Numbered from the stretch's first letter, positions 2,044 to 38,865 are shown. The stretch is 64,000 nt of DNA from a virus (IMGVR_UViG_3300035670_000083:36285-100284); one strand, 5' to 3'. The notes: generated by a model from the letters alone, not told the origin. Numbers and translations are program-made.

Positions 2044-2691
2044 TTAAAGTGGAAGTTCTTCTTCTCCTTCTTCACCTTCTGTTTCTTCTCCTTCTATTTC
2101 CTCGAATTCTCCTTGTCCCTGAGCTTGTCCTTGCATCTGAGTTTGTCCCTGAGCTTGTCCTTGCATCTGAGCTTGTCCCTGAGCTTGTCCTTGCATCTGA
2201 GCTTGTCCCTGAGCTTGTCCTTGTCCTTGAGCTTGTCCTTGCATCTGAGATTGTCCTTGCATCTGAGTTTGTCCTTGAGATTGTCCTTGCATTTGAGGTT
2301 CTTCTTGCATCTGTCCCTGTCCTTGCATTTGACCTTGTGGTTGTGCTTCCACTTGAATCTGTGCTTGTTGACCTTGAGGTTGAGTCTGTACTTCTCCTTG
2401 TCCTTGTGCATCACCAGTTAAAGCTCCTGCTGGAATTTGATCAACATTTAAGAAGTTCTGTGTTATATATTTTACAACTTCTTCAGCTATATCAACATCA
2501 CCAAAGAATTGTCTTAGGTTTTTACCAGTGTTGTCTTTCACTTTCTTAACATAAGCGTTAATCATTGATTGTGGTATGTCAATCATTGTTCTCACCTTAT
2601 AGATGTCGTTAACTTGTAGAACAGATTCTTTAATGATCTCTTCTTTTCTTTTTTTGGTTTGATAGTTTCCAAATTTTCTAATATGTTTCAT
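2044..2691 (-). CDS. putative head protein with Gln/Gly-rich and acidic C-terminus
   Basis: MKHIRKF N-terminus, QGQAQMQGQA repeats, EEL-rich end; late promoter motif upstream. Confidence 0.75.
   Translation of the reverse strand: MKHIRKFGNYQTKKRKEEIIKESVLQVNDIYKVRTMIDIPQSMINAYVKKVKDNTGKNLRQFFGDVDIAEEVVKYITQNFLNVDQIPAGALTGDAQGQGEVQTQPQGQQAQIQVEAQPQGQMQGQGQMQEEPQMQGQSQGQTQMQGQSQMQGQAQGQGQAQGQAQMQGQAQGQAQMQGQAQGQTQMQGQAQGQGEFEEIEGEETEGEEGEEELPL
2108..2345 (-). repeat. coding tandem repeat (Gln-Gly-Ala-Met, ~30-bp unit)
   Basis: repeated CTGAGCTTGTCCTTGCATCTGAGCTTGTCC on plus strand. Confidence 0.9.
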
Positions 2692-4646: not shown

Positions 4647-4669
4647 TAAAGTATATCAAGAAATAGACT

Positions 4670-4701
4670 GAACCTCACATTACATATACATCTTGTTATA
4701 T
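4670..4701. repeat. attC-like half site A (right arm only)
   Basis: CTCACATTACATATACATCTTGTTA nearly identical to the right arm at 7072-7095. Confidence 0.7.
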
Positions 4702-4779
4702 TCAGTAATTTTTAAATTATTTTCAAAAAATCGTTTTTTTTTTTTATTAATATATAGAATATAAATATTATCAGAAGAA

Positions 4780-4818
4780 ATGAAAAATGTAAAACTATAT
4801 AAAGTGGATACGTATTAA
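4780..4818 (+). pseudogene. truncated cassette remnant MKNVKLYKVDTY
   Basis: late promoter at ~4748, MKxxKL start, stops after 12 codons, followed by a cassette end ACACATAAC. Confidence 0.4.
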
Positions 4819-4830
4819 TTTTTTTATTAC

Positions 4831-4880
4831 ACATAACGTTCCGATTATTTGCGTTCGGTGGGGCGTTACACCACCAATGA
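4831..4880. repeat. attC-like half site B (left arm)
   Basis: ACATAACGTTCCGATTATTTGCG..., no matching right arm/GTTA closing the stem. Confidence 0.55.
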
Positions 4881-4887
4881 TTATTAT

Positions 4888-5720
4888 ATGAGTAAAGAAA
4901 TGAGAAGGTTAATAGTTACTTTTAATAAGTTTGTTATTAAAGAAAAGTCTAATAATATTAAAAAATAGTTTCAAAATATGATGCTCCGTATGGAATTATT
5001 TTTGATGGGGAAAACAAAATATTAGTTGGTGATATGCACCAAACACCAGTTGAATTATCTAAAAAACTTGAAAATAAAGTAGTTAATGTTGCAAACAAAT
5101 ATGGTTATTATGGTGAAGGTATTGGTTTGGAACATAACGAAGCAATCACCAAATCATCTTTTTATGAAAGATTAGACCCCAAAAAACATTATGGTTCTTG
5201 GGATAGAAAATTAATTGAAAGTGGTGAAGTACCTGAAGATAAAAAATATTTTTTTTTGTATGCTTTGTTTTCAAATCCAAAAGAAAATCATAGATTAGAA
5301 AAATTATTGGAAAATACGGAAGAAGAAGATACAATTTTTTATGTCTTACTAAAAACTATACCCGATTGGTCAGCAGATATGGGTAAATTTAGTTTAGGAC
5401 AAAAAGAACTAAATAAATTTCTTAAAGAAATAAGTGAAAATGGAATTGATTTTATTCAAATGTCACAACAAAAAGCAGATGAAAAATCATTATCAGAATT
5501 TTTAGATTTAGGAGAAAAATTACAATGGCCTGAAAAAAATTGGCAAGATTATCCAAATATGGCAGGTAAATTTGCAAGAGTGGCGACAACCATTAGAGAC
5601 CAATTTTTAATTAATGCTGGACCTGGGGTTTATTTTGTCGGTGCGGGACATCTTAAAGATATTGTAAAAATGGGCAAAGAAAAAAAATTATCTTTAATAG
5701 GGGGCGAAAAAATCATGTAA
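4888..5720 (+). pseudogene. frameshifted cassette gene, TraB/GumN(TIKI)-like
   Basis: MSKEMRRLIVTFNKFVIKE... joins the 5034..5720 frame if one A is added in the A6 run 4960-4965; GDMH and YFVGAGHL motifs. Confidence 0.55.
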
Positions 5721-5733
5721 AAAATATTGTGTA

Positions 5734-5781
5734 TAACGTCCGATGATAAACAATCGCTTTAATGTTGTTTATCATTTGTTA
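5734..5781. repeat. attC-like site C (48 bp)
   Basis: TAAC-GTCCG-ATGATAAACAA-TCGCTTTAATG-TTGTTTATCAT-TT-GTTA. Confidence 0.9.
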
Positions 5782-5859
5782 TATTCAGTTAAATTTTTTC
5801 AATTATTTCAAAAAACCGTTTTCTTTATTAATATATAAAAGAAAAATAATATTAAAACT

Positions 5860-6534
5860 ATGAAACATATAAAAAAATATGAAACTTTTCTAGAAAAAAA
5901 ATGGATACTAGGAATAAATGAAAACATTTTTGATAAAATTGAATCACTAGTTAAGGGAAAATCAGACTCTGGTAAAATTATATCCGAATTCTTAACTAAG
6001 AACGGAATTAAAGAAACTGGGACTGCATATTCAATTCTCTATTTGGGCGGTGCTAATCCAGGCAAATCCGAATTAAGTCACCCATTTGATTATTTACATT
6101 ATACACCAGGTATCGCTAAGATTACAGAAGATGGTGTTTTAGTATTAAATGATGAAAAATCTAAATCATTAAAAACACCAGATACATTATCATTTCTAGC
6201 AATTATTGAAAAAGATGATATTGTTAAAAATTGGACATTTGGATTAAAACAAGGGTGTAGTGTAAATAAAAATGATTATACTTTTGATTTAACAAAGGAT
6301 ATTTCAACTCTAACTTTTAAAAAATCTATGTGGTCAATGTTGAAACAAACTTGGATTAAAGGAGAAGATGAAGTTGTAGAACTTGATAATGATATTACTG
6401 AACTTAAAGAGGAAGATACTATATCCTTCAAAACCCCTATGAATATGATAACTCTACAACAATGGGTTGATAAGTTGAATGAGACAGGATGGGTTAAAGA
6501 AAATAGTAAATATTTTAAAGAATATATAAAGTAG
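5860..6534 (+). CDS. cassette gene, hypothetical with capsid-targeting-like N-terminus
   Basis: MKHIKKYETFLE; TAATATATA at 5829-5837. Confidence 0.8.
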   Translation: MKHIKKYETFLEKKWILGINENIFDKIESLVKGKSDSGKIISEFLTKNGIKETGTAYSILYLGGANPGKSELSHPFDYLHYTPGIAKITEDGVLVLNDEKSKSLKTPDTLSFLAIIEKDDIVKNWTFGLKQGCSVNKNDYTFDLTKDISTLTFKKSMWSMLKQTWIKGEDEVVELDNDITELKEEDTISFKTPMNMITLQQWVDKLNETGWVKENSKYFKEYIK

Positions 6535-6617
6535 GCAATAATCCACAAATAAAAAACACCAATTCGTTAAGTGAAATTGATTATTTTATATCCACAATTG
6601 GAAAACGAAACAGAACT

Positions 6618-6665
6618 TAACGGTTGAGAATATGTGTTCGTTTTAATGACACATATTCTTTGTTA
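6618..6665. repeat. attC-like site D (48 bp)
   Basis: TAAC-GGTTG-AGAATATGTGT-TCGTTTTAATG-ACACATATTCT-TT-GTTA. Confidence 0.9.
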
Positions 6666-6691
6666 TATTTAGTATCAAAAATTTTATACAA

Positions 6692-6934
6692 ATGAAAAAA
6701 TGTAAATGTATTAAAGAATCTTCTTGGTTTTTAATTGATGATTCCTTCGATAAGAATTCTAAATTAAATGGTGGTGGATTTTCTTTTCAAGTAGGTAGTG
6801 AATATGATTATTTTGAAGAAGATACACCATTTGGAAATGGTATGTCGGTTATCCATCCTAAACATGGGAAAGAAAATCCTACTGGTTTTGATGAAAGAAG
6901 ATTCTACGAACACTTTGAAATAATAAACTCATAA
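6692..6934 (+). CDS. cassette gene, small hypothetical
   Basis: 80-aa ORF filling the interval between sites D and E. Confidence 0.75.
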   Translation: MKKCKCIKESSWFLIDDSFDKNSKLNGGGFSFQVGSEYDYFEEDTPFGNGMSVIHPKHGKENPTGFDERRFYEHFEIINS

Positions 6935-6952
6935 AATTTTTGATATTGAACC

Positions 6953-7095
6953 TAACGATACTCAGATATATTTAGGTTTTCTTTTTAATGTAGTGTGAGA
7001 TTTGAAACACTACCTGTCAATATACCAACAAACTCTATTAGAAGCACTTACCTTCAATTAACCACCGAATCTCACATTACATATACACCTTGTTA
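6953..7095. repeat. attC-like site E (chimeric, 143 bp)
   Basis: left arm of G/J type, right arm of I/A type, inner stem ATGTAGTGTGAGATT/AATCTCACATTACAT. Confidence 0.75.
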
Positions 7096-7204
7096 TGTGT
7101 AGGTGTGATTATTTACCACCAAACTCTATTCGGAGAACTGAAAGAAAATTTTAGAAAAAAGAAGGGAGGGAAATTTAATTCAGAATATTTTATATATATC
7201 ATCT

Positions 7205-8020
7205 ATGATACTCAAATTTAATCAGTTTATAACTGAAAGACTTTCCTATTCTGAAGATGTTGAGATGATCTCAAAGATTATAATTGAATACTTATATGGT
7301 AAAGAAAACTGGGAATCAGAAGAAGTGATAAAAATAGATAATTCGGTTATAAATGAAGTAAGAATACAATTCATAGATAATTTAAGTAAGTTAGGAAAAA
7401 AATCATCATTTAATCCAAATAAATCAGATTATAATAATCGTATGATATTTTTAGAATTTGATCCAGATGAAATCACCGAAGGATTGTTAAATCATGAAGT
7501 ATTTCATGGGTGGGAATGGATTCGAAATGAAGGAAAACATTTAACTAATTCTTTTCAATTCGCAATTATTCAATTAAATAATTACTTTGAAGAAGATGAA
7601 AACATATCTGAAATTATTCAACTATTTTATTTAATGTCAGATGCTGAAATTAGATCTCATTTAAATAGTGATATATTTGAATTTAAAAGATGGAAAGAGG
7701 ATAAAAATACCACTTCGATGGAAGAAATAGATTTATTAATAGAGGAAACAGATACATTTCAAAATTATCAATTTGTGAAAAAATTTAATCTAAACGAATA
7801 TTTAAATAAATTGAGTACTGAGAAATTAGATGAATTTATATCAGCAGTTGAACAAATGAAGTATATGAAAGATGGTGAAGAGTCTGAAATTATGGTGAAG
7901 AGATTTTCTGATTTAGAGAGAAGTAAATTTATACAAAAGTTAAATATTATACACAAACAACAAAGTGAAAAAATTACTAAATATTTAGGAAAATTAATAT
8001 TATATTTCAGAAACTCTTAA
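7205..8020 (+). CDS. cassette gene, HExxH metallopeptidase-like with capsid-targeting-like N-terminus
   Basis: MILKFNQFITE; LNHEVFHG. Confidence 0.7.
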   Translation: MILKFNQFITERLSYSEDVEMISKIIIEYLYGKENWESEEVIKIDNSVINEVRIQFIDNLSKLGKKSSFNPNKSDYNNRMIFLEFDPDEITEGLLNHEVFHGWEWIRNEGKHLTNSFQFAIIQLNNYFEEDENISEIIQLFYLMSDAEIRSHLNSDIFEFKRWKEDKNTTSMEEIDLLIEETDTFQNYQFVKKFNLNEYLNKLSTEKLDEFISAVEQMKYMKDGEESEIMVKRFSDLERSKFIQKLNIIHKQQSEKITKYLGKLILYFRNS

Positions 8021-8061
8021 ATTTTTTTTAGAAAAAATTTATTTGATACATTTTTAATTAC

Positions 8062-8069
8062 TATATTTG
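8062..8069 (+). promoter_or_regulatory. Bacteroidota-type -7 box TATATTTG
   Basis: TAnnTTTG, with TTTG at 8042-8045 upstream. Confidence 0.55.
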
Positions 8070-8088
8070 CGTATATAATAAAAATAAA

Positions 8089-8342
8089 ATGGAAAATCTC
8101 AAACAAGAAAATAACTACGAAAAATTTGTTATCAGACAGAAGGTGGTTGGGTATTAAAAGAAGGCGTGGCTAAAAAGGAAGAGATAAGTTTTTTTGTTGT
8201 TAGTCCTGATGGTAAAGAACTTACTTGTTTAGATGGTTCAAATATATTCTCTTCTGTTGATAAATCTGATTTGTTAGAATCGTTTAATATGAGGTTTAAA
8301 ACAAACTGTGTTAGTGTAGAAAGACCAAATGTTTTTGAATAA
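8089..8342 (+). pseudogene. frameshifted small cassette gene
   Basis: MENLKQENNYEKFVI then a 1-nt shift near 8135 into EGGWVLKEGVAKKE...PNVFE*. Confidence 0.55.
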
Positions 8343-8368
8343 GAAAATAATTGAAAAATAATTCAATA

Positions 8369-8448
8369 TAACGGTTGCAAATATGAGAAGTAAATTTTTT
8401 CCATAAAAAAATAGAAAAATCAAAATTTATTTCTTATATTTGTTGTTA
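8369..8448. repeat. attC-like site F (80 bp)
   Basis: TAACGGTT-GCAAATATGAGAAGTAAATTTT...AAAATTTATTTCTTATATTTGT-TGTTA. Confidence 0.85.
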
Positions 8449-8474
8449 TATTTAGTAAAAATTAATTTATACAT

Positions 8475-8654
8475 ATGAAATACGAAGCACTTAAAAAAGA
8501 ATATTATGCAGTTTATGAAAAAGAACCAAGACACCAGAATGAAAAGAATGGTGTGATACTTGCACCATATAACACGAAAGAAGAAGCTGAACAAGCGAGA
8601 ATTAAATATGGTTATAGTGATGATAACTACTATGTTGATAAACTCATAAATTAA
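8475..8654 (+). CDS. cassette gene, 59-aa hypothetical (below ORF-track cutoff)
   Basis: MKYEALKKEYYAVYEKEPRHQNEKNGVILAPYNTKEEAEQARIKYGYSDDNYYVDKLIN*, fills the F-G interval. Confidence 0.75.
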   Translation: MKYEALKKEYYAVYEKEPRHQNEKNGVILAPYNTKEEAEQARIKYGYSDDNYYVDKLIN

Positions 8655-8667
8655 TTTTTATTGAATA

Positions 8668-8789
8668 TAACGATACTCAGATATATTTAGGTTTTCTTTT
8701 TAATATATACTAAAAACAATTTATGAAAGATAATAAACACATAAAAAGTTTCAACGATCATCAAGAAAACTTGAATATATCTGATGTTA
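8668..8789. repeat. attC-like site G; loop contains late promoter and gene start
   Basis: TAACGATAC-TCAGATATATTTAGGTTTTC...GAAAACTTGAATATATCTGA-TGTTA; TAATATATA 8701-8709; ATG 8723. Confidence 0.9.
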
Positions 8790-9004
8790 GTGGTAGTGAA
8801 ATATTAAAATATCTTGATGATAAATATCATGTAAAAGATAATCTAATGATTGTTGGTAGATTTGATAAGAACAAAAAATATAATTATATTCAATTGTCTA
8901 ATGAAATATCAAAGGTATTTGGTTTGTCAACACAACAATCATTAGATTTAGTAGAAAAGTGGAAAGATATTAGATTTGAGAAAATTATGAAAAATAGATT
9001 TTAA
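8723..9004 (+). CDS. cassette gene starting inside site G
   Basis: MKDNKHIKSFNDHQENLNISDVS then unique C-terminus. Confidence 0.8.
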   Translation: MKDNKHIKSFNDHQENLNISDVSGSEILKYLDDKYHVKDNLMIVGRFDKNKKYNYIQLSNEISKVFGLSTQQSLDLVEKWKDIRFEKIMKNRF

Positions 9005-9018
9005 TATTTAATTATCAC

Positions 9019-9066
9019 TAACGTCCGATGATAAACAATCGTTTTAATGTTGTTTATCATTTGTTA
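9019..9066. repeat. attC-like site H (48 bp)
   Basis: differs from site C at one loop base. Confidence 0.9.
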
Positions 9067-9177
9067 TGTGTAGGTGTGGATTATTTACTACTAAACTTCA
9101 ATCGGAGAACTGAACAAAAATTTTAAAACAAAAAGAAGGGTGGGTTTTTTAATCTTACTATTTATATATAAAAGAAA

Positions 9178-9606
9178 ATGATGAAAGATTTGAGACAGTT
9201 TATTAAAACAACCATACGTGAGTTTTTGAATGAAGCATACATTGATGAGGATGGTAATTTAAAAGACTTTAATGATAAAATATTCTATGATTTTGATAAA
9301 ATTAAAAAGTTTGTAGATTGGTTTCAAAGTGAATATAGTGATTATACTCATAAACAGGGTTGGTCTATATTCGATTCTGATACAGAAGCACCTAATGAAA
9401 AATATCATAGTGAAAGAACTTTTAATGGTAAAAAATTGAATGGATATTATTGGCAAGTTCAAAGATTAGATTCACCAAGTGATGACGAAGCATTATTTGG
9501 GAAATTACCAAATGATTATAAGGCTGATGATTTAGCAAGAAAGTTAGGTTTAATGGTTGATGAATACGGTGTGGTTTATGGTTGGGATGGACAATCTTTT
9601 TTATAG
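9178..9606 (+). CDS. cassette gene, hypothetical with capsid-targeting-like N-terminus
   Basis: MKDLRQFIKTTIREFLNE; TTATATA upstream. Confidence 0.8.
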   Translation: MMKDLRQFIKTTIREFLNEAYIDEDGNLKDFNDKIFYDFDKIKKFVDWFQSEYSDYTHKQGWSIFDSDTEAPNEKYHSERTFNGKKLNGYYWQVQRLDSPSDDEALFGKLPNDYKADDLARKLGLMVDEYGVVYGWDGQSFL

Positions 9607-9676
9607 TGTGTGGGATTTTTCTTTTAAAATTTTCAACCGAAATATTGATTAGAACGATGAATGGAACACTTACACA

Positions 9677-9766
9677 TAACGGATGGGTGTATATGTAGGT
9701 TTTTTAACTTTAAAATTTAATATATACTTATGAACTGAATAAAAAACTTACATATACACCTTGTTA
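9677..9766. repeat. attC-like site I (90 bp); late promoter in loop
   Basis: TAACGGATG-GGTGTATATGTAGGTTTTTT...AAAAAACTTACATATACACC-TTGTTA; TAATATATA 9718-9726. Confidence 0.9.
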
Positions 9767-9797
9767 TGTGTTAGTAAAAAATAAAAGGAAAAAGAAT

Positions 9798-10103
9798 ATG
9801 AAAAGATTAAAATACATTAAAAGATTCAATGAATCAAATGAAATGGATATTGAAATTGAATTAATTGGTCCTGATATAGATGATATTTTAGATGCAATTA
9901 ACTTCATAAACAATAACTATGATGTGAGTGTAAATCCAACAGATTTTCAAGAAGGTTCTGATATGCCTTATGCTCATAAAAGAAATCAAAATTATTCAAT
10001 TTTTGTTAAGTTAAATCCTAGTGGTGATGAAAAAAGTCATATCAGATTTATTAATGATTTGTTGGATGAAAACGGATTCTCTTGTAGGTTGTATATGATT
10101 TAA
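9798..10103 (+). CDS. cassette gene, acidic hypothetical with capsid-targeting-like N-terminus
   Basis: MKRLKYIKRFNES; ATG 9798 preferred over 9768. Confidence 0.8.
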   Translation: MKRLKYIKRFNESNEMDIEIELIGPDIDDILDAINFINNNYDVSVNPTDFQEGSDMPYAHKRNQNYSIFVKLNPSGDEKSHIRFINDLLDENGFSCRLYMI

Positions 10104-10130
10104 TGATATTATTTATTTTCTTATTACACA

Positions 10131-10260
10131 TAACGATACTCAGATATATTTAGGTTTTCATTTTTAATATATAAACAAAAATAATTTAACAACATGAAAA
10201 GTTCAAATAATGTAAAAAGTTTCAAAGAGTTCAATGAAAACTTGAATATATCTGATGTTA
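10131..10260. repeat. attC-like site J; loop contains late promoter and gene start
   Basis: same arms as site G; TAATATATA 10165-10173; ATG 10194. Confidence 0.9.
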
Positions 10261-10424
10261 GTGATAGTTTTTTGTCACCCGAAGAATTTTTAATTGATTG
10301 GGAAGGTAAAGATGATTCAACACACCCCAATCAAGATATTAGAGACGAATGGACTAAAAGAATTAATCAATTAAAAATTTATTCAAAAATGGTTCTTGAT
10401 AACACTTTAAAAAATTATCACTAA
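10194..10424 (+). CDS. cassette gene starting inside site J
   Basis: MKSSNNVKSFKEFNENLNISDVS...; its stop codon is the TAA of the last TAAC. Confidence 0.8.
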   Translation: MKSSNNVKSFKEFNENLNISDVSDSFLSPEEFLIDWEGKDDSTHPNQDIRDEWTKRINQLKIYSKMVLDNTLKNYH

Positions 10425-10460
10425 CTATATTATATATGTAATGACCTATAAATAATTGAT
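10416..10460. other. candidate attI-like primary integration site
   Basis: final ATCACTAAC not followed by G or a hairpin, just 5' of the integrase. Confidence 0.55.
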
Positions 10461-10461
10461 T

Positions 10462-11265
10462 ATGAATGAAAAGGGTAAGTCAACTTTAAAGATTTGTGAA
10501 CAAAAACTTAATTATCTAAATTATTCTAAAAGAACGATTGATAATTATTTATCACATATTAATAGATTTTTAAAATCACAAAATAAATCATGTTTGCATT
10601 TATCATCTAATGATTTTCAGTCATATTTAGATAATTACAAATTTACTTCTATATCGCAACAAAACCAAGTTATTAATTCTATTCGATTTCTTTATAAAGA
10701 AGTTCTCGGTAAAAAGTATGATAAAGTCTCTTTCAAAAGACCTAAATCTGAAAAGAAACTTCCACAGGTTATAGATGGTGATTATATAAAATCACAATTA
10801 TCTAAAATTGATAATCTTAAACATAAGGCAATCCTCACACTAACATACTCGGTTGGATTAAGGGTTTCTGAAATAACCAATCTTAAAATTGAAGACATTG
10901 ATTCAAAAAGAATGATCATTCATATAAAAAATGCAAAAGGAAAGAAAGATAGGATTGTTCCACTTTCTGAAAATGTTTTAAATTTGCTTAGATATTATTG
11001 GAAACAATATAAACCAAAAGAATACCTTTTCAATGGATTATCCGGTAGATATTCAATTCAATCCTGTCAGAAAATATACAAAAAATATATTGATGAAAAA
11101 TCATCATTTCATACATTAAGACATTCTTCATTTACTAATTTACTTGAGTCAGGAACAGATTTGCGGATAATACAGAAAATAGCAGGTCATTCAAGCTCAA
11201 AAACAACCGAAATATATACTCACGTTTCAAATCAAATTTTAAGGAAAGTTAAATTACCCATCTAA
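10462..11265 (+). CDS. IntI-related tyrosine recombinase (N-terminal SAM-like domain plus catalytic domain)
   Basis: YSKRTIDNY, SQQNQVINSIRFLY, GLRVSE (R), KGKKDR (K), HTLRH, GHSSSKTTEIY. Confidence 0.92.
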   Translation: MNEKGKSTLKICEQKLNYLNYSKRTIDNYLSHINRFLKSQNKSCLHLSSNDFQSYLDNYKFTSISQQNQVINSIRFLYKEVLGKKYDKVSFKRPKSEKKLPQVIDGDYIKSQLSKIDNLKHKAILTLTYSVGLRVSEITNLKIEDIDSKRMIIHIKNAKGKKDRIVPLSENVLNLLRYYWKQYKPKEYLFNGLSGRYSIQSCQKIYKKYIDEKSSFHTLRHSSFTNLLESGTDLRIIQKIAGHSSSKTTEIYTHVSNQILRKVKLPI

Positions 11266-13464
11266 TCCCCAAGATTTTCTAGCTTCTACCATCCTTCTAT
11301 TATAAGAGATTTTATTTCTTCTTATATCCAGTAATTGTTTATAATCAACTCCTTCTTCATATGATATTTTATTTAAAATATCATCAACTTTATTTCTTAT
11401 CTGTATATCTTCTAAATTATCAAAATAATCATCTACCATCCCTCTGAAATCATTCTTACCAAAAATAGATGTTAGGTTAACCAAAGTCATAACCGTATCA
11501 TCATTTTTATTACCATCAGCTTTATAAGTAATATTTCCAGTTCTTGTTGTATGTTTTATAAATGTTGTCATTTCATCTATATTTTCGTTATTATAAATAA
11601 TAATTGATCTATCTTGCATTTTTTCTTGGTAATCTTTCACCATTAGGTTTTTATTCTCACCAACTTTTAATCCTATTTTTTCATCTAACGCATCTACTCT
11701 GTGTTTAAATCTAAAGAATATAGATGATCCATAGTTGTTATTTCCTTCAAATACATTCGGTAAGTGAGCAAGTAACTCATATCCGTATGTATTGACTTCT
11801 AATACAGCTTTTAAATTATCTGTATCAAAATGATCAAAAGCTAAAACATAAAGTAATTCTGATAATTCATTGACGGATATAAGATTGCTTCTATACATTC
11901 CTATTTGTTCAAGTTGAATAAAGTCAAGTATGTTTCTATAATTCTTATTTTGTCTTTCTATTAGATCTATCGGCTTTGATTTTAATTTGAAAATATTTAT
12001 CACCGTATAGTCCTGTCCTAATCCTTCAGATACATCTATACTTAATAGTATCCGATAATTTTTTCTTATTTGTGGATTATAAATTTCTTTATTCGGATGC
12101 CATTTTAGATCTTTGTAAGAGAATTTAAGTTTTTCTTCTATTTCAGGAATTTCCTGCCATTCAAATAATGTTTTTCTATCAGTTAATTCTTTTATTAATC
12201 CATCATCTAATAATGATCTAGATGAGTTAATAAACTTCAAGTCAAATTCTTGGTTAAAAGCTTCTTCACCACCAATATCTTTGATTGTTTGTTTTTTCCA
12301 AGTTGTTATTTCAGCAATTTCTGGTAATTTAATATCATTTATTGTTTCTTTAATGATATCTTCTTCCTGACAATCATCAGAATTAAAAACATGAACAACC
12401 CACTTATTTAACTCGTCATCAAATCTCAGCTCTGATTTATTTTTTGGAAAAGATTCTTTAATCCTACTTAAAACATCTTCTGGTTTGACATTGTAGTGAT
12501 CTAATTTCTTTTGATTCAATCTTATGTATGTCACGAATCTTTTCGGAACTTGCCACCAATAAACTCTTTTTGCCACATAAGATGATTTTTCGCCTTCAGG
12601 CTTTTCAGCTTCTATTAAAAGTTTGTGAAATAAATTAAATCCGTTTGGAGTAGAGGTTATTATAATTTTAGAATTATCGATGTTGGCAATAGTAGGAAAC
12701 ACCGATTTGTAGAATTTATCTGCAATATTATCTGGTAGATAAGCAAACTCATCTAAATATAAAAAGTCAGCAGATTGACCGATAGAAGCGGTTTTTGTTG
12801 TTGCAAATCCTTTTATACGACTTTTATTTTCAAATGACATGAATTTCTCATTCCACTTTTTAATACCTTGTTGTAAGAAAAATGGAAGTCTTTGGTATAT
12901 TTCTTTCATTTTATCAAGGATCTCAGTTGCTGTATCCAACTTATTTGCTGTTACAAGAACGTTTTTGTTATTATTAAAAAGAACAAAATGTAATATGGTT
13001 ATTGCTGATGTGATAGTATTATGTGATAAAATACCATTTGTATAATATCTATGATTTGGATGATCAATAGATAAATCAAACATAGATAGTTTATGATTTG
13101 TTTTTTCTATCATTTTAACTTTTGATATTCCTTGATCAGTTTGTATGTAATCGCCTATTTTTAAATCTTTTATGTATATTTGATTAAAGTCCACATCAAA
13201 TAAAATGTGATTATCAGCACCGTTAAGAAATAGTCCATTTTCTAGTTTTAAATTATATTCACTATAAGGTTGTGTTATATGTATTTGCGGAGCTATTTCA
13301 TAACCAGTGTCTGTTTTCACTGATAAGTTGCAACTTATTGTATTCAATATCTTTTTGGATATATCATGTTCATTCAAATCTAAATTTCTGTATTCGAAAA
13401 CTTCTATATACTCAATTAATTTTTTTATTAAATATATTATGATAAGAGTAAAAAATCTAAACAT
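11254..13464 (-). CDS. terminase large subunit C-terminal part preceded by split-intein IntC (149 aa)
   Basis: ...MFDLSIDHPNHRYYTNGILSHN|TITSA; Walker B LYLDEFA, ITSTPNG, nuclease DVSEGLGQD and DDTVM. Confidence 0.92.
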   Translation of the reverse strand: MFRFFTLIIIYLIKKLIEYIEVFEYRNLDLNEHDISKKILNTISCNLSVKTDTGYEIAPQIHITQPYSEYNLKLENGLFLNGADNHILFDVDFNQIYIKDLKIGDYIQTDQGISKVKMIEKTNHKLSMFDLSIDHPNHRYYTNGILSHNTITSAITILHFVLFNNNKNVLVTANKLDTATEILDKMKEIYQRLPFFLQQGIKKWNEKFMSFENKSRIKGFATTKTASIGQSADFLYLDEFAYLPDNIADKFYKSVFPTIANIDNSKIIITSTPNGFNLFHKLLIEAEKPEGEKSSYVAKRVYWWQVPKRFVTYIRLNQKKLDHYNVKPEDVLSRIKESFPKNKSELRFDDELNKWVVHVFNSDDCQEEDIIKETINDIKLPEIAEITTWKKQTIKDIGGEEAFNQEFDLKFINSSRSLLDDGLIKELTDRKTLFEWQEIPEIEEKLKFSYKDLKWHPNKEIYNPQIRKNYRILLSIDVSEGLGQDYTVINIFKLKSKPIDLIERQNKNYRNILDFIQLEQIGMYRSNLISVNELSELLYVLAFDHFDTDNLKAVLEVNTYGYELLAHLPNVFEGNNNYGSSIFFRFKHRVDALDEKIGLKVGENKNLMVKDYQEKMQDRSIIIYNNENIDEMTTFIKHTTRTGNITYKADGNKNDDTVMTLVNLTSIFGKNDFRGMVDDYFDNLEDIQIRNKVDDILNKISYEEGVDYKQLLDIRRNKISYNRRMVEARKSWGLDG

Positions 13465-14393
13465 TTTTGTATTGTTTCTTTTTTATTCTTACGATATTCA
13501 GAATCCCATATTACTAGAACTTCAAATCCGTGAGATTTTGCTACATCTAACTTTATTTTATCTTTTTCCCAAATTTCTTCCGATTTTCTTCCCTTTCTGA
13601 AAGGATGTGGATAATCATCACTTTTAAAAATATTTGGATTGGCATGATACTGATCACCATTATATTCAATTATCTTTTTATTTTTAAGATAAACAAAATC
13701 ATACATCCAGATACCACCACCATTCTTAGGTAGTCTAAATTCACCACCATTTGTAGCATATAGAGAATCTTTTTTGTTTATACTAATGGAATCAAATAGT
13801 TGCTGGCTACTTTTTGAGTATCCTTGTTTAAGATTTCCATTTTTAAGTAAAGAATTTTGCCATTTAATCTGCCTTTCTGTAAAAATTCTTTCACCATCCT
13901 CAGTTCCATATTTTTCTATACACTTATCTAAGTTAAATGTAGTTTGTCTTTCTCTTCTTTTTTCAATTGATTCATCTTCTGTAAATCCTTTATCTATCCA
14001 ATATTCTAATTTTGTAGGATTTGGTTTTTCTTCGTTAACTGATTTTATAAAATTTAATCTTTCTTCATCAGATTCATAATTTTTGAATTCTTTTGAAAAC
14101 GGACTTCTACTTTTTCTTTCTTCAGATGTAGTATTTGACTTGTGATTAGGATTTTTTTCACCAGAGAACATATCAGAGAACATCTTTTTATATTTTTCTT
14201 CTTTCATGTGTTTTCCGGAGTTTTTAGTAGTTTGTTTTAAATCTGATTTACACATTAATGGTGATCCCGGAAAAAGTTTTTTATATTCTTTTGATGACAT
14301 TCCATTGTGCTTATGTTTTAAGTGTTTACCATATATCCTTTTGCATTTTTCACCACAAATTCTACAAGTTATTAAGTTATCTATTTCTTCCAT
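13437..14393 (-). CDS. free-standing Vsr/DUF559-like homing endonuclease
   Basis: CRICG..HLKHKH zinc finger; IIEYNGDQYH...GFEVLVIWDSEY; lies between the two TerL fragments. Confidence 0.8.
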   Translation of the reverse strand: MEEIDNLITCRICGEKCKRIYGKHLKHKHNGMSSKEYKKLFPGSPLMCKSDLKQTTKNSGKHMKEEKYKKMFSDMFSGEKNPNHKSNTTSEERKSRSPFSKEFKNYESDEERLNFIKSVNEEKPNPTKLEYWIDKGFTEDESIEKRRERQTTFNLDKCIEKYGTEDGERIFTERQIKWQNSLLKNGNLKQGYSKSSQQLFDSISINKKDSLYATNGGEFRLPKNGGGIWMYDFVYLKNKKIIEYNGDQYHANPNIFKSDDYPHPFRKGRKSEEIWEKDKIKLDVAKSHGFEVLVIWDSEYRKNKKETIQKCLDFLLLS

Positions 14394-14407
14394 ATTTTAT
14401 ATATTAT

Positions 14408-14914
14408 TTATGGCTTCTCACCAATTAGGTAAAGTATATCATATAGTTTTATTTTTATTCTTTCTAATAAAGTTAGATCTCTTTCCAATGATGTTAGAAA
14501 ATAGTATAATCTACCAATACGAGTGTGTATTTCTATATCATTATCCTTCAGAATAATTTCCGTATTAAATGATATACATTTTCCGGTCTGACGGCTGGCC
14601 ATTAGTATATTGAATCTGTTGTTAAAAAAATTATCTAAAATTTCTTCTTGATAATCTCTTAATTTAATTTTTACTGGAGATCCTTTTTCTCCCTTTACCC
14701 AACAATAATTCTCAGCGAAATAATGAATATCCATTTTACATTTAATGTATTCATCGATTTCATGTGGAGTCATTTTAAATGAAAGTCCAGATTTTCTCAA
14801 TCCTATTACCTTTTCATGAAAGGGATTTTCGACATTTTTCAATATCTCACCCATGTTCAACATTTCTATCTTTTCATTTACTAATTTAGTTGTCCATATT
14901 ATTTGTTTCGACAT
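14408..14914 (-). CDS. terminase large subunit N-terminal part plus IntN (56 aa)
   Basis: DIHYFAENY, LRDYQ, Walker A SRQTGK followed by intein start CISFNT (Cys codon 14576-14578). Confidence 0.92.
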   Translation of the reverse strand: MSKQIIWTTKLVNEKIEMLNMGEILKNVENPFHEKVIGLRKSGLSFKMTPHEIDEYIKCKMDIHYFAENYCWVKGEKGSPVKIKLRDYQEEILDNFFNNRFNILMASRQTGKCISFNTEIILKDNDIEIHTRIGRLYYFLTSLERDLTLLERIKIKLYDILYLIGEKP

Positions 14915-22554: not shown

Positions 22555-25500
22555 ATGGCAATTCAAATCGGTAAATACAAAAGACCAGGCATCTTTATTG
22601 AAGAGTTTGATCAATCAGTGATTTCAAGCCCTACAGTTGAAGGAATAACAAATACTGTAATTGGTGTTTCGAGAAAAGGACCAGTTAATACTCCAATTCG
22701 TTTAACTAATGTTGCGGATTTAGAAAGAGTATTTGGACAACTTGATAGACAATTGGAAAGAAAGGGTTCTTTCTTCCATAGAACAATATCTAAAATGTTG
22801 GAAGCATCTCCAGTTTTCGCAATCAATTTACTTCTAACTGATGATACTTTGGATACTATTGAGTATCAATCATTATCTTGTGCTACTACAGAACAAAACG
22901 ATATTGAAAGAGAAGGACCTTATAGAAGATTTTTCGATACTACAGGTTTCTGGAGAAGAGATACTGAATCTTTTATAAATCTAACAAAAAATAACGTTGG
23001 TTATGAAAATAGACTATTGAATTTTACAAACTTATCTGATAAGTATGTTACTATTTTTGTTTTCAAATCTGAAAGAACTGGATTCGATATCTCTTTATTG
23101 GATTGGTATGGTGCTCAAGAAAAAGTACCTCCATATGTAAATCCAAAGGATTTAGCATCTGATTATTTAGTTGATGTTGTTGTTATTGCCGGTGATTATT
23201 CTGATTATAGAAATCTTTCTGTAGATCCAAGATTTTCACAATATTTCTCACCAAGTGGTCTTAGAAAAGATCAAGTTAGAAATTTCTCTAATGATAGAAA
23301 TGTTACAACATTGGCTTACGCTGAAGGACTCTCATTGATTCCTTATTTCAGAGATTTGAATGGTAATAATATTTTTATTGAAACTGTTATTAATAGAGGA
23401 ACTGATCAACACGGTGTATTCTGTGCTTTCAACGTTGATTTATTTGAGACTGATTATCCAAATGGATTAGTTGATTTAATTGGTAATAACTTTGTTGGAG
23501 ATGATTTGACAGCAAATCCACCAACATCAGGATTTACTAACTACGGAGAACTTGATTCAAATGATGGTACTTCAGATGGTGAGGTTAAAATCAACTTCCT
23601 TTCTTATAATGAGACTATTACTGAAAGTAATCCTTTCCAAACAACAGTATTGGATAGACCAGGTAATGTTATGGCTTTGTTTAGTGGTACTTCATCAAAT
23701 CCAAGTTCTATAAGTACACATACATTGAATCCAAACAGTGGTTCATTAGGTGGATATTTACAAGGTTATCCAAAAGATGTTGCTGGTAAATATGAAAGAA
23801 CTTATTGGTTTAATGAAGATTATGTTAATGATGTTTATGTTTCTTCTACGGCATCTACTGGACAAACTATATCAGTAACTTATGATGTTGCTACTGATAA
23901 TGGATACGTTGTTATAGGTGGTGAATATGTTTCTATAACTGACACATCTTCACAAGGAGGTTTGAATGGTCAGATTGATTTAGTTTCAACTTACTATTCA
24001 TCTTCATTGACAGTTACTCAATCTTATGTAGCTGCTTTTGTTGTTGATTCTAATGGACAGATTAAGTCTGTTCAGACAACTACACCAGGTGTAAATCCAC
24101 TTGTAAACGCTACTGATGTTGTTTTAGGATATGCTACATTCAGTTGTTTTGCTGGAACTTTCTCTGGTGTTAACTTCGTTCCAGTTTCTATTGATTTTGA
24201 TACAACTTTGAGTAGTGGTGGTGATTCTGCTTATTTACCTTTGGTATATGGAGTAGGTGGTGACTACTATTACACTGTTAATGGTTCACAATCATTGACT
24301 GTAACCTTTGATGATACAAATCAATCAATATCACCAAGAGATTATGAAAGATATAGAAGGTTAAAGACATTCAATCATATGGTAGATTATTTATCTTCTG
24401 ATACAGGAGTTTTACTTTTAGATCCAAATGGTTTATTGGGAGGTGAACAAGAAAAATTAGATTTATCTTTTGTTGAGATAGATAACATAATTAATACTAA
24501 TACACAAAATAGATCATTTGATTTATTGGTTGATGTTCCAGTGACAAATCCATCTACAAATACAGTTGTTGAGGATAATTACGTTGATAATTATTTTGCA
24601 ACAAACTCTGATGTAATCACATTAGCGACTGCTTCTATACCACTTGTTATATATAAGGTAGATGATGAATTCATTCTTGGTAAAGAAAGTGCTATCACTA
24701 AATCTACTCCTGCTGGATTAACTCAAGGAGTAGTTGCAAGGTACTCTACAATGTACCAAAGATACGAACAAGGTTTAATAAACAGCACTGATGTTATTTA
24801 TCAAAAGGTTAATTACTCACCAGTTCAAGTACAATTCATTGCTGGTGAATCTGTAACTGCTTCTCTATCAGGATATGATTATATCGTATTCGGTGTAAAT
24901 CAAAACGAAGAAGATTACTTAGGAAATCCTAGAACTGATATAATAAATCAGAATGATGCTTTCTTTACTGATGTAAATGATTTGTCTGGATATAAATTCT
25001 TATTATCAACTCCTGATAATAGTGGTGTATTCACTTACAAATCAGATGAAGGTTTAAATACAACAATTAATACACTGTTGACTTTACCAGCACCATACAA
25101 CGGATTTGGAAATAACTATACATCAGAACAAAGAGCGGATTTATTAGACACTTTATCTGGACAAGCTTTTGGATTCAGTGCTTCAGCTACTTACTCTTAT
25201 TACGCCTTTGAGGTGAATGAGAATATCACAGAAGAATTTGTAAATGCTGTTAATAACATATTCTCTTATAATTCAAACTTAGCCGATGCTCCAATTTACT
25301 TGGATATGCACTTAGATAATGAATTAAATATGGTTGTTACTTTTGAAGATAATCTTTTACAATCTTCAGTGCCATTTGATAGTGTAGTGACATCTACTAC
25401 TCCAGAACCACTATGGGCAAACTCAACAATAGTAGTTAAATCTTTGGATTCTAATTACAGACAATCTGTTGAAGTTGAATACCCTGCAAACTGGACTCCA

Positions 25501-26808
25501 GAGCCTAATAAGATTCTTGTAAGAGCTAGTAGATATACAGAATTGAGTGTAGGTGATTATTTAGAAGCATTCTATGATGAGTCATCACTTCAACCAAATG
25601 AAATGCCAAGAAAGCTTACAAGAGTTCTTAGAAAAAGACTTTGGAGTGGAGATTCTACTCTAGCTGAAATAACTTGTGATGCAGAAATCAAAATATCTGA
25701 CTTCGGATCAGGTGATAAGCAAACATTTATGTACACTCAACTTGATGACTATGTTTCTACTTATAAAGCTATTAGTTTGAAAGGATTTAGAATAAGACAA
25801 GATTCTTTACCAGATGGTACAGAAACTAAACAATCACAGATTCTTGATTTAGTTGCTAAGGGAACTCCACTTTTCAAAGCAGCTACAAACAAAGAAGCTT
25901 TTGATTTCAGATACTTGATAGATTCATTCGGATTAGGATTGACTGAAAGAAGTAAGCAACAATTAGTTGATATTTGTGGAGAAAGATTGGATTGTTTCGG
26001 TATATTGAATATGCCATCAATGAGATCATTCAAGAATTCTTCATCTCCATCATTTGTTAATAATGAAGGAGTTCTACAAACATCATTTATAGCATCAGGT
26101 GGTGATCCTAATTCATCTCCAGCTTTCCTTTACTCTTTAGGTGATGGAAGAGGTGTTTCCTCAGTTGGTTATTTCACACCATACTTGACTGTAAATGACA
26201 ATGGAAGACCTATTGATGTTCCACCATCAGCTTATGTTGGATTGACTTATATGAGAAAACATAACTCAACAGTTACTAATATTGTTCCTTGGACAATTGC
26301 GGCTGGTGTTACAAATGGTAGAATTACTAATATCGCAGGACTTGAACAGGATTTCAATCCTGAAGATATTGAGAACTTTAATCAGGCTCAAATGAATCCA
26401 ATTGTATTCAAGAGAAATAGAGGATTCACAATTGAAACTGAGAATACAGCTCAAACTCTATATTCATCAGCACTTTCTTTCATTCACGTTAGAGAAGTTC
26501 TTATTGAACTTGAAAGAGAGTTGTCTAGAATGTTACTTGATTTCCAATGGAGATTCAATACTCCTGAGGTTAGAGCAGAAATTAAGTTGAGAGCTGATGT
26601 TATCTGTGAGAGATATGTATCAAGAAATGGACTTTATAACTACTTTAACAAGTGTGATGAAGAAAATAACACTAACGAGATAATAGATAATCAAATAGGT
26701 GTACTTGATACTTATGTGGAGCCAATAAAGGGTATGGGTATTATAGTTAACAATATCACTATTCTTAGAACTGGAGCTATTCAAGCAGGTGGATTTATCC
26801 AACAGTAA
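22555..26808 (+). CDS. contractile tail sheath protein (gp18-like) with large insertion
   Basis: RPGIFIEEFD, KGPVNTP, C-terminal VPPS..AGVTNG..NPIV..IHVRE..CDEENN..VEPIKG. Confidence 0.92.
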   Translation: MAIQIGKYKRPGIFIEEFDQSVISSPTVEGITNTVIGVSRKGPVNTPIRLTNVADLERVFGQLDRQLERKGSFFHRTISKMLEASPVFAINLLLTDDTLDTIEYQSLSCATTEQNDIEREGPYRRFFDTTGFWRRDTESFINLTKNNVGYENRLLNFTNLSDKYVTIFVFKSERTGFDISLLDWYGAQEKVPPYVNPKDLASDYLVDVVVIAGDYSDYRNLSVDPRFSQYFSPSGLRKDQVRNFSNDRNVTTLAYAEGLSLIPYFRDLNGNNIFIETVINRGTDQHGVFCAFNVDLFETDYPNGLVDLIGNNFVGDDLTANPPTSGFTNYGELDSNDGTSDGEVKINFLSYNETITESNPFQTTVLDRPGNVMALFSGTSSNPSSISTHTLNPNSGSLGGYLQGYPKDVAGKYERTYWFNEDYVNDVYVSSTASTGQTISVTYDVATDNGYVVIGGEYVSITDTSSQGGLNGQIDLVSTYYSSSLTVTQSYVAAFVVDSNGQIKSVQTTTPGVNPLVNATDVVLGYATFSCFAGTFSGVNFVPVSIDFDTTLSSGGDSAYLPLVYGVGGDYYYTVNGSQSLTVTFDDTNQSISPRDYERYRRLKTFNHMVDYLSSDTGVLLLDPNGLLGGEQEKLDLSFVEIDNIINTNTQNRSFDLLVDVPVTNPSTNTVVEDNYVDNYFATNSDVITLATASIPLVIYKVDDEFILGKESAITKSTPAGLTQGVVARYSTMYQRYEQGLINSTDVIYQKVNYSPVQVQFIAGESVTASLSGYDYIVFGVNQNEEDYLGNPRTDIINQNDAFFTDVNDLSGYKFLLSTPDNSGVFTYKSDEGLNTTINTLLTLPAPYNGFGNNYTSEQRADLLDTLSGQAFGFSASATYSYYAFEVNENITEEFVNAVNNIFSYNSNLADAPIYLDMHLDNELNMVVTFEDNLLQSSVPFDSVVTSTTPEPLWANSTIVVKSLDSNYRQSVEVEYPANWTPEPNKILVRASRYTELSVGDYLEAFYDESSLQPNEMPRKLTRVLRKRLWSGDSTLAEITCDAEIKISDFGSGDKQTFMYTQLDDYVSTYKAISLKGFRIRQDSLPDGTETKQSQILDLVAKGTPLFKAATNKEAFDFRYLIDSFGLGLTERSKQQLVDICGERLDCFGILNMPSMRSFKNSSSPSFVNNEGVLQTSFIASGGDPNSSPAFLYSLGDGRGVSSVGYFTPYLTVNDNGRPIDVPPSAYVGLTYMRKHNSTVTNIVPWTIAAGVTNGRITNIAGLEQDFNPEDIENFNQAQMNPIVFKRNRGFTIETENTAQTLYSSALSFIHVREVLIELERELSRMLLDFQWRFNTPEVRAEIKLRADVICERYVSRNGLYNYFNKCDEENNTNEIIDNQIGVLDTYVEPIKGMGIIVNNITILRTGAIQAGGFIQQ

Positions 26809-32621: not shown

Positions 32622-32694
32622 ATTATTTGAATTATTTTTTATGCAGTATATATAGTTATATTTTTTTTCTCTTGTTAGTTTAATATATAAGTTT

Positions 32695-33324: not shown

Positions 33325-33432
33325 TATTAGAAAAAATTGACTTTTTATTTATTATATATACTTTGTATGAGTGTTAAATATGAGCAAGAGACATATTTAG
33401 TATTAATATATATTAAAAAATAACTTAATGAT

Positions 33433-34059: not shown

Positions 34060-34077
34060 AATTGATTATTTTAATTT

Positions 34078-34110
34078 AAAAACCGATAATTTTTATTATC
34101 GGTTTTTTTT
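34078..34110 (+). terminator. intrinsic terminator
   Basis: AAAAACCGATAAT-TTTT-ATTATCGGTTTTT. Confidence 0.8.
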
Positions 34111-34121
34111 ATATATAGAAC

Positions 34122-34835: not shown

Positions 34836-34845
34836 TATATACAAT

Positions 34846-35277: not shown

Positions 35278-35280
35278 AAC

Positions 35281-36396: not shown

Positions 36397-36480
36397 AACA
36401 ACAATCATTTAATTTCATATAAACTAAATAAAAATTATGTAGTTTTTCTGCTCATATTTTACAAAAAATAATTTTAAAAT

Positions 36481-38847: not shown

Positions 38848-38865
38848 TTTTAACTTTTTTTTTAT

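Follow-up and report, generated by a model that had tools for sequence, protein, structure and literature searches.

A viral tyrosine recombinase lacking the IntI-specific insertion adjoins an integron-like array of hairpin-separated cassettes

The stretch of DNA considered here (64,000 nucleotides, referred to as the window) comprises bases 36285-100284 of a 100,284-bp IMG/VR virus record with a CheckV completeness of 18%, and its GC content is ~27%. It contains a gene for a tyrosine recombinase that is preceded, on the same strand, by an array of small open reading frames (ORFs) and hairpin sites, and that is followed by a convergent gene for the large terminase. The features of this region, numbered from the first base of the window, are as follows.

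4668..10425, + strand: cassette array of about ten small, co-oriented ORFs separated by hairpin sites (from ORFs and a site scan)
5734..5781, + strand: 48-nt site made up of TAACG, a 3-nt bulge, a 13-bp stem, the loop TCGCTTTAATG and T-GTTA
6618..6665, + strand: 48-nt site with the geometry and loop of the site at 5734 and a different, fully compensated stem
6953..7095, + strand: eighth, irregular long site, the arms of which do not pair with each other
8369..8448, + strand: 80-nt site with a 22-bp stem
8668..8789, + strand: 122-nt site with a TAATATATA promoter-like motif and the start codon (ATG) of ORF 8723 in its loop; the right arm is coding
9019..9066, + strand: 48-nt site, 98% identical to that at 5734, with different flanks
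9677..9766, + strand: 90-nt site with a 22-bp stem
10131..10260, + strand: 130-nt site, a paralogue of that at 8668, the loop of which holds a promoter-like motif and the ATG of ORF 10194
10414..10461, + strand: candidate attI-like site with a promoter-like motif and no hairpin; TAAC at 10422-10425, then T and ATATTATATATG
10462..11265, + strand: tyrosine recombinase of 267 aa with PF13495 and PF00589 and without the IntI-specific insertion (from the ORF, profiles, alignments and a model)
11254..13464, - strand: C-terminal part of the large terminase, the convergent neighbour downstream of the recombinase, given for context only (from the ORF and profiles)

Seven of the sites, all on the + strand between 5734 and 10260, share one plan: TAAC, 4-5 nt, a stem of 13-23 bp, a loop, the return stem, 1 nt, and GTTA. 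In the irregular eighth site, the left arm resembles the sites at 8668 and 10131, and the right arm resembles that at 9677. The ORFs of the array point to the recombinase, and most of their ATGs are preceded, 20-25 nt upstream, by TAATATATA-like motifs, for which there are no expression data. Apart from one sub-threshold SPOR match, no Pfam or PHROG family was found among the cassette ORFs. Metagenome contigs contain joints near the cores (8792 to 9019, and 8449 to 9018), but with sides of only 20-39 letters, and with contigs as their only source, these are not counted as evidence. Gaps in coverage at contig-covered cores carry no meaning.

Besides the large terminase, the products encoded in the window include homing endonucleases and a tail-sheath protein of 1417 aa, and related records are complete genomes of 281-362 kb, one of which has direct terminal repeats. 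Given these genes and the size of the relatives, the window is taken to be part of a jumbo myovirus genome. In four complete or near-complete genomes of 281-362 kb, the recombinase is the sole tyrosine recombinase, and neither a serine recombinase nor a Y1 transposase was found in the same four genomes. One related 281-kb record is labeled a provirus in IMG/VR.

The recombinase ORF ends at 11265 and could begin at 10456 (TTG) or 10462 (ATG). The latter start matches those of homologues (MNEKG/MNKKG) and yields a protein of 267 aa. An initial annotation, made from the sequence alone, had described a protein of about this length with an IntI-like N-terminal domain and all catalytic residues, and both descriptions hold: profile searches recover the two domains that it named (PF13495, E 4.6e-13; PF00589, E 6e-34), and the catalytic residues R136, K161, H219, R222, H245, and Y254 (269-aa numbering) show little or no variation in an alignment of 113 relatives. 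Alignments to solved structures agree with this R-K-H-R-H/W-Y set. The enzyme has no arm-binding domain.

The IntI-specific insertion is missing from the recombinase. This had been proposed from the short segment between EYLF and HTLRH, and it is confirmed by alignments of several kinds. In a MAFFT alignment of the recombinase, its relatives, four true IntI, and two XerC/D, the distance from R166 (in KGKKDR) to H219 (in HTLRH) is 52 residues in the recombinase and 53-58 in the relatives, compared with 63-66 in XerC/D and 100 in the four IntI. The IntI blocks LPxALERKYP...W.W.VFP and DPRSG..RRHH were not found in the recombinase in the same alignment. Its alignment to VchIntIA (PDB 2a3v) consists of two pieces, query 21-175 with 16-174 and query 212-260 with 260-308, and therefore places 36 residues of the recombinase opposite 85 of IntI. 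Similarly, the IntI profile TIGR02249 is matched only at profile positions 3-180 and 254-312, with 181-253 unmatched. The structure predicted by AlphaFold (pLDDT 95.3, pTM 0.87) has only a short beta-hairpin at the place of the insertion. The top Foldseek fold match is the integron integrase 2a3v (E 5e-14, TM 0.76), followed by XerA and XerH, and archaeal XerA (4a8e) aligns with the recombinase from end to end (E 8e-33).

All NCBIfam matches of the recombinase fall under the cut-offs of their families. The scores are 160.3 bits against TIGR02249 (cut-off 265), 98.8 against NF011946, a second IntI profile (cut-off 435), 175.8 against NF040815 for XerA (cut-off 220), 140.7 against XerC (cut-off 335), and 140.1 against XerD (cut-off 330). 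As with TIGR02249, the match to NF011946 is split around the missing insertion. A significant match to intI_Cterm would have refuted the initial annotation; TIGR02249 and the alignment to IntI served as proxies for this profile, and no significant match was obtained with either of the two IntI profiles. True IntI, present in 111 of 301 sampled genomes, score 270-509; three unpublished genomes (G042, G144, and G299) are counted in this tally only, and a locus of the first (L181) was kept out of the phylogeny described below. IntI was not found in 14 control genomes, and the IntI rows of the phylogeny were therefore drawn from the ~300 sampled genomes, which are of one class.

The tree (IQ-TREE, LG+C20, quick search) has 146 rows, namely 20 jumbo-phage enzymes, 11 cluster representatives, 79 cellular relatives, 24 IntI above cut-off, 10 XerC/D, and 2 flavophage integrases; archaeal XerA and the integrase of phage Leef are not among them. 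IntI (24 rows) and XerC/D each form a clade of their own with SH-aLRT support of 100. The jumbo-phage enzymes, including the recombinase, fall together with the integrases of phages Freya and Ingeline and with the representatives in a clade with support of 99, nested among enzymes of Bacteroidota, which bears out the earlier proposal of a different recombinase clade. The deep branches that join IntI, the Bacteroidota group, and XerC/D are weak (SH-aLRT 78), and therefore no claim is made that IntI is the sister group. On this placement, the recombinase is best regarded as belonging to a distinct clade of simple, two-domain tyrosine recombinases of Bacteroidota phages that is neither IntI nor XerC/D. 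The insertion is considered the hallmark that divides integron integrases from Xer-type enzymes, and it has been described as "not fully conserved" within an integron-like subgroup (PMC8138268), a remark with which a clade devoid of the insertion is consistent.

Relatives of the recombinase at 60-97% identity number in the thousands in metagenomes, on contigs of up to 362 kb. Beyond these, the closest representatives are Bacteroidota enzymes with 43-48% identity, which have the same two domains, often with an N-terminal extension, and which likewise lack the IntI insertion. Because the nearest cellular relatives of the recombinase occur in this phylum, its sequence suggests Bacteroidota as the host phylum of the phage.

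The initial annotation had also paired the recombinase with non-canonical hairpin sites, an idea that would have failed if homologues were never associated with such arrays. A survey of 80 related phage loci identified 280 TAAC..stem..GTTA sites upstream of the recombinase and on its strand (478 kb), as opposed to 12 downstream (678 kb) and 3 on the other strand. A separate set of 80 loci, from cellular relatives, yielded 5 sites in 818 kb, on both strands, which corresponds to background. Loci of representatives with 45-54% identity were reached by an alignment query. In four loci (L026, L027, L052, and L080), the strict TAAC..GTTA pattern detected zero sites; these zeros were traced to the pattern and not to real absence, since a generic hairpin scan of the four recovered variant cores, in which the left side reads CAAC or CAAT and the right side TGTTG. 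What is conserved throughout is thus AAC-G...T-GTT, with the triplets found in the R boxes of attC. With the CAAC/GTTG variants included, the association is maintained from 100% down to ~48% recombinase identity. A scan of a complete genome of 310.5 kb (G706) for the full core, [TC]AACG...TGTT[AG] with a stem of at least 10, identified 8 sites, all on the + strand and all at most 17 kb upstream of the recombinase, and none on the - strand. The pairing of enzyme and sites thus stands, whereas the sites cannot be called wholly non-canonical because the AAC/GTT cores of attC are kept. Overall, these comparisons support the interpretation of a different clade paired with hairpin arrays. As the phages are related, the adjacency of recombinase and array could partly reflect inherited synteny.

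The sites are also framed by outer arms, ATTG-N4-(T/C)AAC and GTT(A)-N4-CAGT, in which N4 is specific to the cassette. The hairpin stems covary, and the AACG/TGTT cores, the bulge, and a G.T pair at outer-arm position 7 (present in 121 of 139 cassettes) stay fixed. Among the non-Watson-Crick pairs of the inner stems, which were detected without regard to the type of mismatch, there are 191 G.T versus 31 A.C, and in the outer stems, the arms of which played no part in detection, there are 205 versus 26. From this bias it follows that the + strand, which is both the coding strand and the sense strand of the recombinase, would be the one that folds. The wobble bias offers only indirect support for a single-stranded, folded substrate, and recombination on the folded strand remains an inference. 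In plasmid R100, the order on the sense strand of intI1 is array, attI, intI1. The geometry of the window platform thus matches that of an integron, but its cassette ORFs have the inverse orientation with regard to the sites.

The two ends of a given cassette were found to be complementary. The 12 nt that follow GTTA and the 12 nt that lead up to the next TAAC pair at 10 of 12 positions (median), against 6 of 12 for pairing across the same hairpin and 6 of 12 for random ends (n = 212 distinct cassettes, Wilcoxon p 1e-24). If a cassette is circularized in silico, the junction forms one continuous hairpin with a 3-nt 5' bulge, and its fold has an energy of -26.0, -27.9, or -19.6 kcal/mol, versus -15.6, -15.8, and -10.0 kcal/mol, respectively, in the array context. 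Such end pairing and fold stability are to be expected if the cassettes exist, or once existed, as circles opened at the core.

Comparison of loci places the variation at the same core. At ~40-55 nt before the ATG of the recombinase, almost all loci carry an xTAAC without any hairpin, and the letters after it are T (in place of G) and A(T)TATATA. This attI-like region (10414..10461 in the window) is where near-identical phages diverge: there are nine pairs of loci with at least 93% identity over the 45 nt after the terminal TAAC, and eight of them are <50% identical over the 40 nt before it. With respect to the hairpins, 1128 pairs with at least 90% identity share neither flank, 50 share the downstream flank only, and 2 share the upstream flank only. 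Given this ratio of 50 to 2, and the ORF starts that lie inside the loops of two window sites, the mobile unit seems to be a hairpin plus its downstream ORF, cut at AAC on the + strand. The 1128 pairs without a shared flank imply that the hairpins represent a few widely reused families; exchange may take place on both sides of a hairpin, or the hairpins may propagate in another way.

Cultured phages offer a closer view of such exchange. The integrases of Freya and Leef, which infect Polaribacter, and of Ingeline, which infects Cellulophaga (Bartlau et al. 2021, PMC8776804), are 34-40% identical to the recombinase, and those of Freya and Ingeline were placed in its clade, as described above. 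Unlike the window phage, all three are small siphoviruses of ~38-49 kb with short arrays, or, in Freya_1, none. The genomes of the Polaribacter phages Freya_1 to Freya_10 are 43,978-48,920 bp long. Freya has a single recombinase and, as in the window, a variable cassette region directly upstream of its gene with junctions immediately after xAAC. In Freya_10, the integrase is separated from a conserved gene by a 4.9-kb stretch that holds 12 small ORFs; the stretch is absent from Freya_1, and the flanks are 99.9-100% identical.

Freya_1, _6, and _10 differ by whole cassettes, with 99.4-100% identity in the aligned shared flanks and junctions that fall exactly after xAAC. With the breakpoint marked by a slash, the junction in Freya_1 is ...tattgtttaCAAC / ACCCCTATAAC..., those in Freya_10 are ...tattgtttaCAAC / GGATATGG... 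and ...attgttgcTAAC / ACCCCTATAAC..., and that in Freya_6 is ...attactacCAAC / ACCCC...; another divergence between Freya_6 and Freya_10 lies directly after CAAC. Freya_10 also contains three similarly built sites of 126 nt, and it has one stem family in common with the jumbo phages. No hairpin sites were found next to the integrase gene of Ingeline. The Freya and Ingeline enzymes were annotated as lysogeny integrases and read only as a sign of a temperate lifestyle (PMC8776804).

Considered together, the sequence comparisons make it probable that the recombinase is dedicated to an integron-like cassette platform carried by the phage. Its role as the catalyst is inferred, not shown, as every link between enzyme and sites is comparative and none comes from an experiment. 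On the strand of the recombinase, the proposed platform would run from the cassette array, through a terminal xTAAC with T and a TATATA-rich, promoter-like motif (the attI-like site), to the recombinase gene. A cassette would comprise, in order, G, a bulge of 3-4 nt, the inner stem-loop, T-GTT(A), the outer arm N4-CAGT, the ORF, the outer arm ATTG-N4, and (T/C)AAC. Upon circularization, the outer arms and the AAC/GTT core would close into one long hairpin with a small 5' bulge, equivalent in shape to a folded attC. The enzyme would then bind the folded + strand and cleave at the AAC core, such that insertion would be strand exchange between a folded site and the attI-like site, and excision would be strand exchange between two folded sites. 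This scheme would depart from the integron model in that the folding strand is the coding strand and the cassettes seemingly carry their own promoters. The extrahelical bases that IntI reads with helix I2 might be replaced by the core-adjacent bulge of 3-4 nt and the fixed G.T wobble, and the reading of hairpins without that helix is likewise inferred.

Several other explanations have to be weighed. The recombinase could be an ordinary housekeeping or lysogeny enzyme that lies beside a hypervariable region in which cassettes are shuffled by other means. It might then be an arm-less integrase, or cyclise the genome as Cre does, or resolve concatemers or plasmid prophages in the manner of Xer. 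This is thought unlikely, although PHROGs places the recombinase under integrases, its Freya and Ingeline relatives have been taken as signs of temperate phages, and its gene adjoins the terminase genes. In phage P1, for example, cre/loxP is located near pac. A 51%-identical relative does occur inside a prophage of a Bacteroidota chromosome, but no jumbo-clade homologue with >52% identity was found in 401 sampled Bacteroidota genomes, nor any with >48% in a scan of species representatives. Moreover, in the provirus G704 the prophage end holds a second tyrosine recombinase (401 aa), and the array enzyme lies in mid-genome. The marks of a temperate integrase (a gene at the prophage end and homologues in integrated prophages) are thus not met for the jumbo clade in the sampled genomes. 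The lack of an arm-binding domain also speaks against this role, as do the near-identical phages that differ at TAAC ~40 nt before the gene, with phage DNA on both sides, and the complete genome in which all full-core sites are just upstream of the recombinase.

Alternatively, the hairpins could be regulatory cassettes of promoters and terminators, like the PeSLs of T4-type phages, that are exchanged by homologous recombination between repeated hairpins without any site-specific enzyme. PeSLs drive modular shuffling and form mini-circles in T4-type phages (PMC2839356), and the phage system fits this description in its TAATATATA promoter-like motifs within or after hairpins, 20-25 nt before ATGs, in its few hairpin families repeated across many contexts, and in the high summed metagenome depth at hairpin positions. 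Homologous exchange is nevertheless hard to reconcile with breakpoints at one nucleotide, directly after AAC, which occur even at the hairpin-less attI-like site that shares only the core with incoming cassettes. It is also at odds with stems that covary around fixed AACG/TGTT cores, bulge, and outer-position-7 G.T, with the strong + strand wobble bias, which points to a folded single strand, and with arrays that are found only beside the recombinase gene in the complete genome. The explanation is accordingly judged improbable. Hardly any credence is given to a third possibility, namely a true IntI that has degenerated or been misaligned, with a canonical integron array that was taken up from a bacterium. 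The best structural match of the enzyme is VchIntIA, its N-terminal PF13495 is shared with IntI, and the site cores are AAC/GTT, but the insertion is missing in every one of >100 aligned clade members, which are conserved at 60-97% identity with intact catalytic residues, and the nearest cellular relatives, Bacteroidota enzymes without arrays, lack it as well. A degenerate IntI is contradicted by the scores under both IntI cut-offs, by the position outside the IntI clade, and by the spacing of 52 versus 100 residues.

The reading of a dedicated recombinase with its own cassette platform may be carried further. A broader hypothesis, toward which the balance tips only slightly, is that a second, IntI-independent lineage of integron-type gene capture exists in viruses. 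Its recombinase would be minimal and Xer-like, and would dispense with helix I2: folded, single-stranded hairpins would be read through the bulge next to the core and through a 12-bp arm marked by the wobble. Among phages of Bacteroidota, which range from siphoviruses of 44 kb to jumbo phages of 360 kb, this enzyme would shuffle ORFan cassettes that bring their own promoters. If so, the IntI insertion would not be a prerequisite for hairpin-cassette recombination, or this lineage would resemble an integron ancestor that predates the insertion, and the cultured Polaribacter phage Freya would be a tractable model. A phage-host pair for testing the hypothesis is already available, since whole cassettes distinguish the ten cultured Freya isolates at the core.

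The literature, of which coverage was incomplete, yielded no account of arrays of this kind paired with a recombinase other than IntI. Integron detectors depend on the IntI insertion. If a conserved and abundant phage lineage does run such an array without it, the number of cassette platforms would be underestimated by present surveys, above all in viruses and in Bacteroidota. It would also provide a natural comparison for studies of folded-site recognition and of the origins of integrons. In addition, a large pool of mobile phage ORFans, possibly with roles in host takeover or counter-defence, would be moving as units between phages.

Among known systems, XerA and XerC/XerD are similar to the recombinase in domain plan and length. 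The recombinase nevertheless scores under the Xer family cut-offs, branches apart from the XerC/D clade, and has a beta4-beta5 region that is shorter still than that of XerC/D; its partner sites form hairpin arrays, as opposed to the lone dif site of the Xer enzymes. The PeSLs of T4-type phages (PMC2839356, PMC4122927) resemble the window sites as modules of stem-loop and promoter between ORFan genes, in hyperplastic regions of large myoviruses, that undergo modular shuffling and form mini-circles. In contrast, PeSL exchange is credited to homologous recombination between PeSLs with no dedicated recombinase, whereas in the window system a single conserved recombinase gene lies beside the array, and the AAC core is the fixed position of the breakpoints.

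Canonical IntI genes and integrase-less attC clusters (CALINs) have been reported in phages by the use of IntegronFinder and HattCI (Qi et al. 2023, PMC9892861). One of the candidates in that study, P12002L_attC1, has the same form and loop as the 48-nt sites of the window (TAACG..TCGTTTTAATG..TGTTA), and it was the only one of six tested phage attC candidates without an IntI1-mediated junction. No link between the sites and a non-IntI recombinase was drawn there, and Freya and the jumbo phages are not mentioned in its main text and one supplement. The Polaribacter phage P12002L possesses at least 5 sites of this family, and no tyrosine recombinase was found in it. A phage that bears the sites therefore need not encode the enzyme, so P12002L represents a CALIN-like case of this site family.

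The closest parallels are with integrons (IntI1, VchIntIA, 2a3v), which likewise combine a tyrosine recombinase gene with an adjacent insertion point and with ORFan cassettes, mostly of one gene each, that are arrayed in one direction. Their sites, too, are imperfect hairpins with AAC...GTT cores, conserved in structure and variable in sequence, of which one strand folds better. The order of array, attI, and recombinase on the sense strand of the recombinase is the same as for intI1 of R100, and the recombinase-proximal cassette is the most variable. The defining behavior of integrons, in which cassettes are gained and lost as units at the core and preferentially at attI, is met on comparative evidence only. 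Differences are equally clear. The platform is hosted by a virus, and its enzyme lacks the IntI insertion (52 versus 100 residues between KGxKDR and HxLRH) and lies outside the IntI clade. The phage ORFs are on the folding strand and point to the recombinase, and the cassettes appear to have their own promoters, sometimes within a hairpin loop. In place of single extrahelical bases within the stem, the phage sites have a 3-4 nt, core-adjacent 5' bulge and a fixed G.T in a 12-bp outer arm (ATTG-N4-TAAC), and each cassette keeps its own 4-nt outer-arm signature. The comparison as a whole supports an integron-type platform in viruses that is served by a different recombinase clade and carries inverted, promoter-bearing cassettes.

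In the Freya phages, ten cultured isolates that represent one species of Polaribacter phage, the content of small ORFs directly upstream of the integrase, a gene of the same clade as the window recombinase, differs by up to 4.9 kb. When Freya_10 (L286/L288, MT732472.1) is compared with Freya_1 (L208/L287), Freya_8 (L289) and Freya_6 (L290), the junctions of the variable region fall exactly at xAAC|, the putative exchange point at the core of the hairpin sites.

A prophage in a Bacteroidota chromosome (L294, G522:C1:239500-259499, reverse-complemented) is related to the provirus record G704. Its recombinase (51% identity) is preceded by the site TAAC|TATTATATATC, as in related loci. Upstream of this gene, a 426-aa ORF occurs in three tandem copies with the same hairpins accompanying each, an arrangement that suggests cassette duplication, as far as sequence alone can indicate it. 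A 281,114-bp relative (G708, locus L034) is classed as a provirus by IMG/VR; should that classification hold, integration may occur in part of the jumbo lineage.

Within the window array, two otherwise unrelated cassette ORFs (8723-8797 and 10194-10268) have in common an N-terminal leader, MK...KSF..ENLNISDVS; in each case its codons lie in the loop and the right arm of a hairpin, and the two hairpins (122-130 nt) are paralogues. The hairpin site itself thus provides a promoter-like motif as well as the start of the reading frame, from the initiation codon through codon ~22. Summed depth in metagenome contigs is 5-80 times as high over the hairpin sites at 5720-5943 and 8408-9079 as over neighbouring cassettes, so that in those communities the hairpin families are present at high copy number.

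The large terminase of the window phage consists of two ORFs within 11254-14914 on the minus strand, separated by a third:

14408-14914, minus strand: large terminase, N-terminal part
13437-14393, minus strand: 318-aa ORF between the terminase parts; matches phrog_22677 and is zinc-finger-like at its N-terminus
11254-13464, minus strand: large terminase, C-terminal part

This arrangement suggests that an intron/homing endonuclease has inserted into the gene or that the terminase is a split one. Elsewhere, repeats with a 12/18-nt period (CTTGTCCTTGAGC-like), present in 14-17 copies, form a long array within the ORF at 2044-2691 (minus strand), and the inferred product of this ORF is thus a low-complexity repeat protein. 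The tail-sheath homologue (22555-26808) is unusually long at 1417 aa, with the sheath-family match confined to its last ~350 residues, and the 1955-aa ORF at 40964-46831 matched no PHROG family.

Sites of the window's family also occur in Polaribacter phage P12002L (L313, NC_028924), where at least five lie amid methyltransferase genes at 32281-39245 on the minus strand; no tyrosine recombinase was found in P12002L. One of them has been published as ‘P12002L_attC1’, which IntI1 did not recombine (PMC9892861). An experimental model is already at hand in the Freya isolates.
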